From positions 1 through 15,087 of the IMG/VR virus record IMGVR_UViG_2698536392_000024: DNA of 15,087 nucleotides. One strand, written 5' to 3'. The position numbers were made by a program, and so were the translations under genes. Origin of the DNA: a virus. Taxonomy: Duplodnaviria; Heunggongvirae; Uroviricota; Caudoviricetes. Positions 9,288 through 9,519 of this stretch are shown piece after piece (position 1 is the first letter of the stretch; each line of letters opens with the position of its first letter). The notes below the pieces were generated by a model. It was not told the DNA's origin, searched no databases, and worked only from the letters and a program-made list of their open reading frames with translations.

Positions 9288-9519
9288 CCCTTCACCTGTT
9301 CACCTTTTGATATTTTATCTTTTAATTCATAATGTTAATGGGTGAACAGTTTCACAAAAACTATTCACCAACTGTTCACCACTGTTCACCCTTGAAGCTC
9401 AATAAACAATCAAAAAGGTGAACAGTGAATAGTTTGGTGAACAGTTCATAAATAACTGCTCACCCTATAATATACTGATATAAAAGATATTTATGACAGG
9501 ATAAACAGTGGTGAACAGT
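9288..9519. repeat. Iteron cluster: P4-type replication origin (ori/crr-like)
   Basis: Exact octamer TGTTCACC at 9297-9304, 9373-9380, 9383-9390 and its complement GGTGAACA at 9341-9348, 9417-9424, 9436-9443, 9510-9517; degenerate copies at 9362-9369 and 9457-9464; AT-rich segment 9305-9340; immediately downstream of the primase-helicase stop. Confidence 0.75.

Follow-up and report, generated by a model that had tools for sequence, protein, structure and literature searches.

The locus raises the question of what a dense cluster of short inverted and direct repeats does between a helicase gene and an ssb operon. The window, the whole stretch of 15,087 nucleotides analysed here, was described earlier by a sequence-only reading as carrying a P4-type origin at this place. 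The present analysis points, with a probability of about 85%, to positions 9283–9522 as the vegetative origin of a capsid-forming PICI-type satellite, built of ori1-derived iterons that would be bound by the neighboring Rep protein.

Exact copies of the octamer TGTTCACC were found at 9297, 9373 and 9383 on the plus strand and at 9341, 9417, 9436 and 9510 on the minus strand, spanning 221 bp (9297–9517). The recount returned the three direct and four inverted copies that had been placed within about 230 bp, at the same positions. The earlier chance estimate of about 0.5 copies per 15 kb also held: 200 dinucleotide-preserving shuffles of the whole window gave 0.60 ± 0.73 copies (largest 4), against nine in the real sequence. 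The two copies outside the array are isolated (7780–7787 and 10803–10810, the latter within the rep coding sequence). Degenerate copies had been mentioned as well, and five were located, at 9289, 9362, 9424, 9457 and 9500; relatives have exact or near-exact iterons at these positions. Together with the seven exact octamers they make a 12-iteron array. The extension said to accompany many octamers is a 5′ ACT, present before six of the seven exact and four of the five degenerate iterons, and the real repeat unit is about 11 bp long, (A/C)ACTGTTCACC.

The layout reads ++ (36 bp, 14% GC) − +++ (26 bp) −−− + (35 bp, 20% GC) −−, with iterons phased at 8–11 bp within groups. AT-rich DNA flanked by iterons, as claimed, is present, but as two stretches (9305–9340 and 9465–9499) rather than one. 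The features of the array are as follows.

9283–9522, no strand: whole origin, a 12-iteron imperfect palindrome; dyad with 56-nt arms, conserved in relatives
9289–9296, plus: iteron 1 (distal pair), degenerate CCTTCACC; TGTTCACC or TGTTCAAC in four of five aligned relatives
9297–9304, plus: iteron 2, exact TGTTCACC
9305–9340, no strand: AT-rich spacer (14% GC) in the distal half, a candidate site of melting; aligns with the 35-bp spacer of P4 ori1
9341–9348, minus: iteron 3, exact (the plus strand reads GGTGAACA)
9362–9369, plus: iteron 4, TATTCACC
9373–9380, plus: iteron 5, exact TGTTCACC
9383–9390, plus: iteron 6, exact TGTTCACC
9391–9416, no strand: central spacer with the dyad axis, 27% GC
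9417–9424, minus: iteron 7, exact TGTTCACC
9424–9431, minus: iteron 8, degenerate TATTCACT; GGTGAATA in relatives
9436–9443, minus: iteron 9, exact TGTTCACC
9457–9464, plus: iteron 10, TGCTCACC; exact TGTTCACC in five of five aligned relatives, hence mutated in the window copy
9465–9499, no strand: rep-proximal AT-rich spacer, 20% GC
9500–9507, minus: iteron 11, degraded TGTTTATC; exact in a plasmid-borne copy that is 97.9% identical
9510–9517, minus: iteron 12, exact TGTTCACC; 15 nt past the rep stop

The midpoints of six mirrored site pairs all fall at 9402.0–9403.5, which makes the array a near-perfect dyad centered at about 9402–9403. A repeat finder returned an inverted repeat with 56-nt arms over the array, and the same DNA taken as a single strand folds far better than its shuffles (z = −6.5). 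The array fills an AT-rich gap of 287 bp between the stop of the helicase gene (9532, minus strand) and the start of an 81-aa ORF (9244), and the first iteron past rep (9510–9517) begins 15 nt beyond the stop codon. The cluster does lie between the helicase gene and the ssb operon, as had been stated, with one short gene intervening before ssb.

8999–9244, minus: 81-aa ORF, first gene past the origin, overlapping the ssb start; no Pfam match
8592–9002, minus: element-encoded SSB (Pfam SSB, E = 1.2e-15)

The 81-aa ORF is conserved and always sits between the origin and ssb in such islands, EcCICFT073 included.

A cluster directly upstream of the 81-aa-ORF/ssb/perC operon might mainly serve transcriptional control, either as a Rep operator or promoter for that operon or as an array for copy-number 'handcuffing'; plasmid iteron arrays often serve as operators too. 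The sequence-only reading had indeed put the promoter of the ssb operon inside the cluster. A consensus scan of 8900–9800 on both strands gave this no support: no sigma-70 promoter scoring at least 9/12 and no intrinsic terminator were detected, and the best minus-strand candidates of a laxer scan reached 8/12. Since no terminator follows rep, ssb is more simply taken to be expressed by read-through from the upstream operon. Moreover, the ori1-type architecture and the AT-rich spacers are kept although the gene downstream differs: the window has ssb there, vB_KppS-Ant a capsid gene and locus L008 other ORFs. A control element is therefore highly improbable as the main role of the cluster, and the origin reading is preferred.

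The octamer itself was correctly identified as the P4 type I iteron. The P4 reference record labels TGTTCACC as 'ori type 1 repeat' both in crr (4291–4590, just downstream of the alpha gene) and in ori (9310–9413). A literature search for the octamer returned primer matches only. The P4 alpha protein reportedly binds these iterons, and crr is said to be needed in cis.

Read in reverse, P4 ori1 has the pattern ++ (35-bp AT-rich spacer) − +++ with start offsets of 0, 10, 53, 75, 86 and 96, and the halves of the PICI origin have offsets of 0, 10, 53, 74, 85 and 93. Octamer, six-site module, orientations, spacing and the 35-bp AT-rich spacer are all shared. In a multiple alignment ori1 spanned both halves of the window array end to end over about 110 nt, with 70% and 60% identity. 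Between the halves themselves identity is 66%, and with the crr repeats it is 42–58%. The alignment with P4 ori and crr that the sequence-only reading had proposed thereby favors ori1, with crr the worse match. When the 287-bp region was searched by BLAST in 50,697 phage records, only the satellite-like vB_KppS-Ant and the P4 origin (9304–9378) were recovered, and not crr. The cluster differs from ori1 in carrying the module twice, head to head, at one locus adjoining rep; the P4 ori holds a single copy, 2.3 kb upstream of the alpha gene.

By position the cluster corresponds to crr and by the architecture of each half to ori1. It could accordingly be a crr-like auxiliary site, bound by Rep and needed in cis while initiation occurs at a separate site, as with P4 crr and ori1/ori2. 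Like the window cluster, P4 crr lies just downstream of an alpha-type gene, carries the same iterons, and its repeats share the ++ (spacer) − start of the module. Nevertheless, crr consists of two direct 120-bp repeats of the form ++ (spacer) −−− +, whereas the window has two inverted modules of the form ++ (spacer) − +++; site orientation, percent identity and BLAST all speak for homology to ori1 and against crr. No second iteron cluster was detected in the window, nor in the 10 kb flanking rep on each side in 80 relatives. The 7780 copy of TGTTCACC, taken together with GAACAA repeats at 7879–7908, was considered as a second alpha-binding site and rejected: the 7780 copy is absent from relatives that are 92–95% identical, and so is a chance match. 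In EcCICFT073, moreover, rep and the adjoining ori were enough for plasmid maintenance, according to the passages of PMC6092414 compared here. An auxiliary role is improbable on these grounds. The label P4-type origin stands for the octamer, the ori1 module and the homology of the neighboring initiator; it does not extend to a bipartite ori plus crr, since the window has a single dyad locus and neither it nor the 80 relatives have a separate crr-type cluster.

Three features were mapped in the gene next to the origin.

9532–11345, minus: rep ('pri-rep'), with D5_N, an SF3 helicase and a C-terminal winged-helix origin-binding domain; Pfam and P4 alpha homology
9532–9873, minus: coding region of the origin-binding winged helix, last 113 aa; matches 1KA8 by sequence and fold
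9613–9642, minus: codons for MKRKTKHGLR, the hairpin forming the wing; across elements this segment changes along with the iteron word

Pfam domains D5_N, DUF5906 (SF3 helicase) and Pox_D5 were found in a 535-aa ORF (9532–11139). Over P4 alpha residues of about 308–760, which cover the helicase and origin-binding domains, window Rep is 50.7% identical to alpha, and its last ~100 residues match the structure of the alpha origin-binding domain, 1KA8 (E = 1.5e-24). An AlphaFold (AF2) model of this domain, built on an alignment of 37 homologues, superposed on 1KA8 with TM scores of 0.70/0.78; its pLDDT was 63 overall and 70–81 over helix 3 and the wing. A single-sequence model was dropped at a pLDDT of 37.5. 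The two initiators share homologous helicase and winged-helix domains, and they differ in the primase domains. Pfam detected neither Zn-ribbon nor Toprim primase domains in intact PICI Reps (584–607 aa), whereas P4 alpha showed both under the same conditions, and the N-terminal 130–150 residues of intact homologues matched no Pfam family. With both domains undetectable, the 'primase' label is unsupported. These intact homologues, such as L009 3289–5103 and L091 8242–9996, are among the proteins annotated as 'DNA primase family' in PICIs and cf-PICIs, in which no Zn-ribbon or Toprim is detectable.

Compared with intact homologues, rep in the window has a 4-nt deletion between 11203 and 11202. 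The resulting frameshift splits it into ORFs of 134 and 535 aa, with the true start at the ATG at 11345, and is also annotated in a 100%-identical E. coli locus. The primase-helicase named by the sequence-only reading is accordingly an SF3 helicase, frameshifted here and lacking detectable primase domains even in its intact homologues.

Conservation was assessed in an alignment of six diverged origin copies (72–89% identical, plus vB_KppS-Ant). Invariant columns made up 77 of 96 iteron positions and 53 of 140 spacer positions (Fisher p = 8e-11). Absence of the iterons from homologous elements had been named as grounds for refutation; the iterons are conserved, and the refutation clearly fails. 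A wider survey, taking one genome per species, yielded 80 Enterobacterales loci with Reps 62–84% identical, from genera including Klebsiella, Kluyvera, Pectobacterium, Serratia, Yersinia, Pantoea, Erwinia, Xenorhabdus and Photorhabdus. At every locus the distance from the rep stop to the cluster is about 10–275 nt. The proposed count of TGTTCACC in relatives bore out the association: of 282 exact copies in 1.48 Mb, 219 sit within 500 bp past the rep stop, and the other 63 are scattered singles over about 1.44 Mb, where about 45 are expected by chance.

TGTTCACC is missing after rep in 20 loci. Eighteen of these carry another word in the same place and in the same 12-site layout. The alternative words are TGTCTACC, TCTCCACC, TGTCCGCC, TGTCCACC and TATCTACC, and the loci with alternative words are L016, L017, L021, L035 and L038; L025–L030; L031, L033 and L037; L036; L089; and L091. 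A weak fit to TATCCACC/TCTCCACC-type words, at 4–6 sites, was seen in L023 and L087.

The iteron words fall into at least six classes, each with its own Rep wing. When the residues that follow the conserved motif EYGxxY are taken as the wing segment, words and wings pair without exception in 87 loci, P4 among them. The wing of the TGTTCACC class reads x(K/R)(K/R/H)(K/R/H)(T/S)KxG(I/L)(R/Q) in 69 loci. Those of the TGTCTACC, TCTCCACC and TGTCCGCC classes read KRKQCTRGPDKGRTI, IRKKSTKGNMR and KKAESKKKATRGRIQ, respectively. Rep of L016, in the TGTCTACC class, is 97% identical to window Rep in the helicase core and 85% identical in helices 1–3, and only 59% identical in the wing segment. In the model the co-varying segment is the β2-turn-β3 hairpin, or wing, that follows helix 3, and in winged-helix proteins it is helix 3 and the wing that make the DNA contacts (PMC2777425). 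This co-variation is the strongest available evidence, short of experiment, that the iterons would be binding sites of the adjacent gene product. Specificity for the iteron word probably resides mainly in the β-hairpin wing, as judged from a model of moderate confidence and a correlation among related sequences. The classes suggest discrete replicon specificity groups among related islands.

The island has its own HNH-terS-terL module, and the repeats might in principle form a packaging (cos/pac) or a partition site. They co-vary with the winged-helix domain of Rep, however, and not with the terminase, and the cluster stays with rep in elements that have different packaging modules. In addition, terS lies about 5 kb from the cluster with the block of head genes in between. 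The chance of such a role is next to negligible compared with that of an origin.

Three further observations were made among the relatives. One exact TGTTCACC lies about 570 nt before the rep stop, inside the helicase gene, in loci L052, L057, L061, L066, L079, L081 and L083, which belong to Xenorhabdus and Photorhabdus; it may be a coding coincidence or a P4 ori2-like site. The 43-kb Serratia phage Scapp encodes a full-length primase-helicase of the alpha type (38% identical), and directly past this gene TTGCACTTTT / AAAAGTGCAA words in both orientations are clustered (L005 4520–4830). The word is unrelated to TGTTCACC, and the cluster is probably the Scapp origin. In Pasteurella phage Pmp7 a few GTGAA-type words were the only repeats found.

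A chromosomal island of E. coli 2013C-4830, located between cspD/yljB and clpS, matches this region of the window at 100% identity. The order of genes in the island is integrase, AlpA-type regulator, Icd-like protein, DUF4222, 'DNA primase family protein' (frameshifted), small ORF, ssb and perC, followed by HK97-type capsid, protease, portal, head-closure/connector proteins, HNH, terS and terL (frameshifted). No tail genes were found in the island, either in the annotation of the 100%-identical locus or by Pfam. This is the gene set by which cf-PICIs are defined (PMC10085698): int, alpA, pri-rep, capsid, protease, portal, connectors, HNH, terS and terL, and no tail. Among 5,426 complete E. coli genomes, the intergenic region was present in 594 (near search) to 686 (distant search), and no annotated feature underlies the match among the matches listed.

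Upstream of the capsid operon, three tandem 10-bp repeats of GAACAA(C/A) type (7879–7908) lie just downstream, on the minus strand, of a terminator-like hairpin, AGCCGGAGCAATCCGGCTTTTT (7925–7946). They are conserved in the 92–95% identical relatives and may bind a regulator of the packaging operon.

One relative is pZ1323HEC0475-3 (L094, NZ_CP148328.1, 1–10790), a closed circular E. coli record of 10,790 bp deposited as a plasmid. It contains int, alpA, icd-like, DUF4222, rep, ori and a capsid-protease fusion, and encodes an intact 605-aa Rep (WP_021548685.1) that is 99% identical to that of the window. By gene content it is a PICI-like island, and the record fits an excised, replicating one. 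Its origin is 97.9% identical to that of the window, with six differences. Three of these are inside iterons, and the plasmid copy has exact TGTTCACC where the window reads TGCTCACC (site 10) and TGTTTATC (site 11). Site 10 reads as in the plasmid copy in all five of the other aligned relatives, and site 11 does so in four of them.

Such changes raise the possibility that the cluster in the window is an inactive relic, which descends from an origin but is unused because the island decays. In terL, too, the reading frame is split, into overlapping ORFs on the minus strand (1322–2215 and 2209–2982), and this frameshift is annotated in the identical E. coli locus. With rep, through its 4-nt deletion, and terL both frameshifted, the island in the window is decaying, and half of the origin differences from the plasmid-borne copy have destroyed two exact sites. 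Nevertheless, seven exact sites and three with one or two mismatches are left, both AT-rich spacers are intact, and the 535-aa ORF with the helicase and origin-binding domain is still open. A Rep of the same class, P4 alpha included, could moreover act in trans. That the window copy is a relic is unlikely, although the possibility carries real weight. Given the frameshifted rep and the two degraded iterons, the origin could fire only with same-class Rep supplied in trans, for which a related island or P4 alpha could be the source by specificity class; the copy itself, with a rep pseudogene and two iterons mutated relative to its relatives, may no longer be firing.

From the sequence, architecture, position, homology and co-variation described above, we infer how an intact origin of this kind would work. 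The SF3 helicase encoded directly upstream would bind the 12 iterons (A/C)ACTGTTCACC through its C-terminal winged-helix domain, and the array would have arisen as a head-to-head (inverted) duplication of the six-iteron-plus-AT-spacer module of P4 ori1. After induction and excision, Rep is predicted to assemble on the helically phased iterons of both arms, and the ~35-bp AT-rich spacers (14–20% GC) would melt. Two helicase hexamers would then load in opposite orientations and drive bidirectional replication; a precedent is the poxvirus E5 helicase, in which two SF3 hexamers sit head to head on double-stranded DNA (PMC12137749). The product of the downstream ssb gene would coat the unwound DNA and stabilize the bubble. 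Because no primase domain is detectable, primers would probably come from the host.

A broader proposal can be put forward tentatively, and we regard it as a conjecture with somewhat less than even prospects. PICI and cf-PICI origins of Enterobacterales would in general be head-to-head dimers of ori1, in which the functions of ori and crr are merged at one site for double-hexamer loading, with specificity groups set by the Rep wing and cross-activation within groups. As the TGTTCACC group is common to this island, many others and P4, alpha and PICI Reps would be expected to activate each other's origins. If so, Rep-defective islands could persist as replication parasites of co-resident satellites. 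The wing-iteron classes themselves give a simple sequence rule, from which one can predict the satellites that are able to replicate one another's DNA or that compete for one initiator.

The closest known systems are the origins of PICIs. In Gram-negative PICIs the origin is the region directly 3′ of the initiator gene, and sets of iterons flank AT-rich DNA (Fillol-Salom 2018, ISME J, PMC6092414, and its Figure 2a legend). The passages of that paper compared here report that a rep-ori clone of EcCICFT073 on a temperature-sensitive plasmid gave colonies at the restrictive temperature of 44 °C, that rep mutant and ori mutant constructs each differed significantly from this clone, and that no other known bacterial replicon has an origin organized in this way.

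The CFT073 island was compared with the window directly. Directly 3′ of its rep (L091 9997–10284) it carries T(G/A)TCTACC iterons in an identical 12-site dyad, ++ (spacer) − +++ / −−− + (spacer) −−, around AT-rich DNA. The neighborhood is also the same: DUF4222, rep, ori, small ORF, ssb and perC. The two differ in the iteron word, TGTTCACC against T(G/A)TCTACC, and in the Rep wing, and the Reps are 45% identical. Unlike EcCICFT073, the island in the window is a capsid-forming one that has genes of its own for capsid, portal and terminase, and the copy in the window is defective. With its place 3′ of pri-rep, its iterons and AT-rich DNA and its EcCICFT073 architecture, the cluster has the features of a PICI/cf-PICI origin. 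The same 12-site dyad at the EcCICFT073 ori position places it in a published origin type that, in the passages of PMC6092414 compared here, was tested experimentally. As no crr-type site is present here, the single-site reading rests on that precedent as those passages describe it; the EcCICFT073 construct also held the rep gene, so an internal P4 ori2-like site may exist there.

More distant SF3 replicons offer a parallel. The palindromic origins served by SV40 large T and papillomavirus E1 likewise have dyad initiator sites around AT-rich DNA, and poxvirus D5/E5 forms a double hexamer; the likeness to the window is one of analogy only, without sequence relationship between the origins. The correspondence with ori1 and the specificity classes go unmentioned in the passages of PMC6092414 and the other satellite papers compared.

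Judged by its sequence, the locus is most precisely filed as a PICI/cf-PICI origin homologous to P4 ori1 duplicated head to head. The PICI origin type is already known, and the ori1 correspondence alone is incremental here, so a known system is refined and current understanding is not overturned. For a very common family of E. coli satellites the cis-acting origin has been located, and it is linked by sequence to the classical ori1 of P4.
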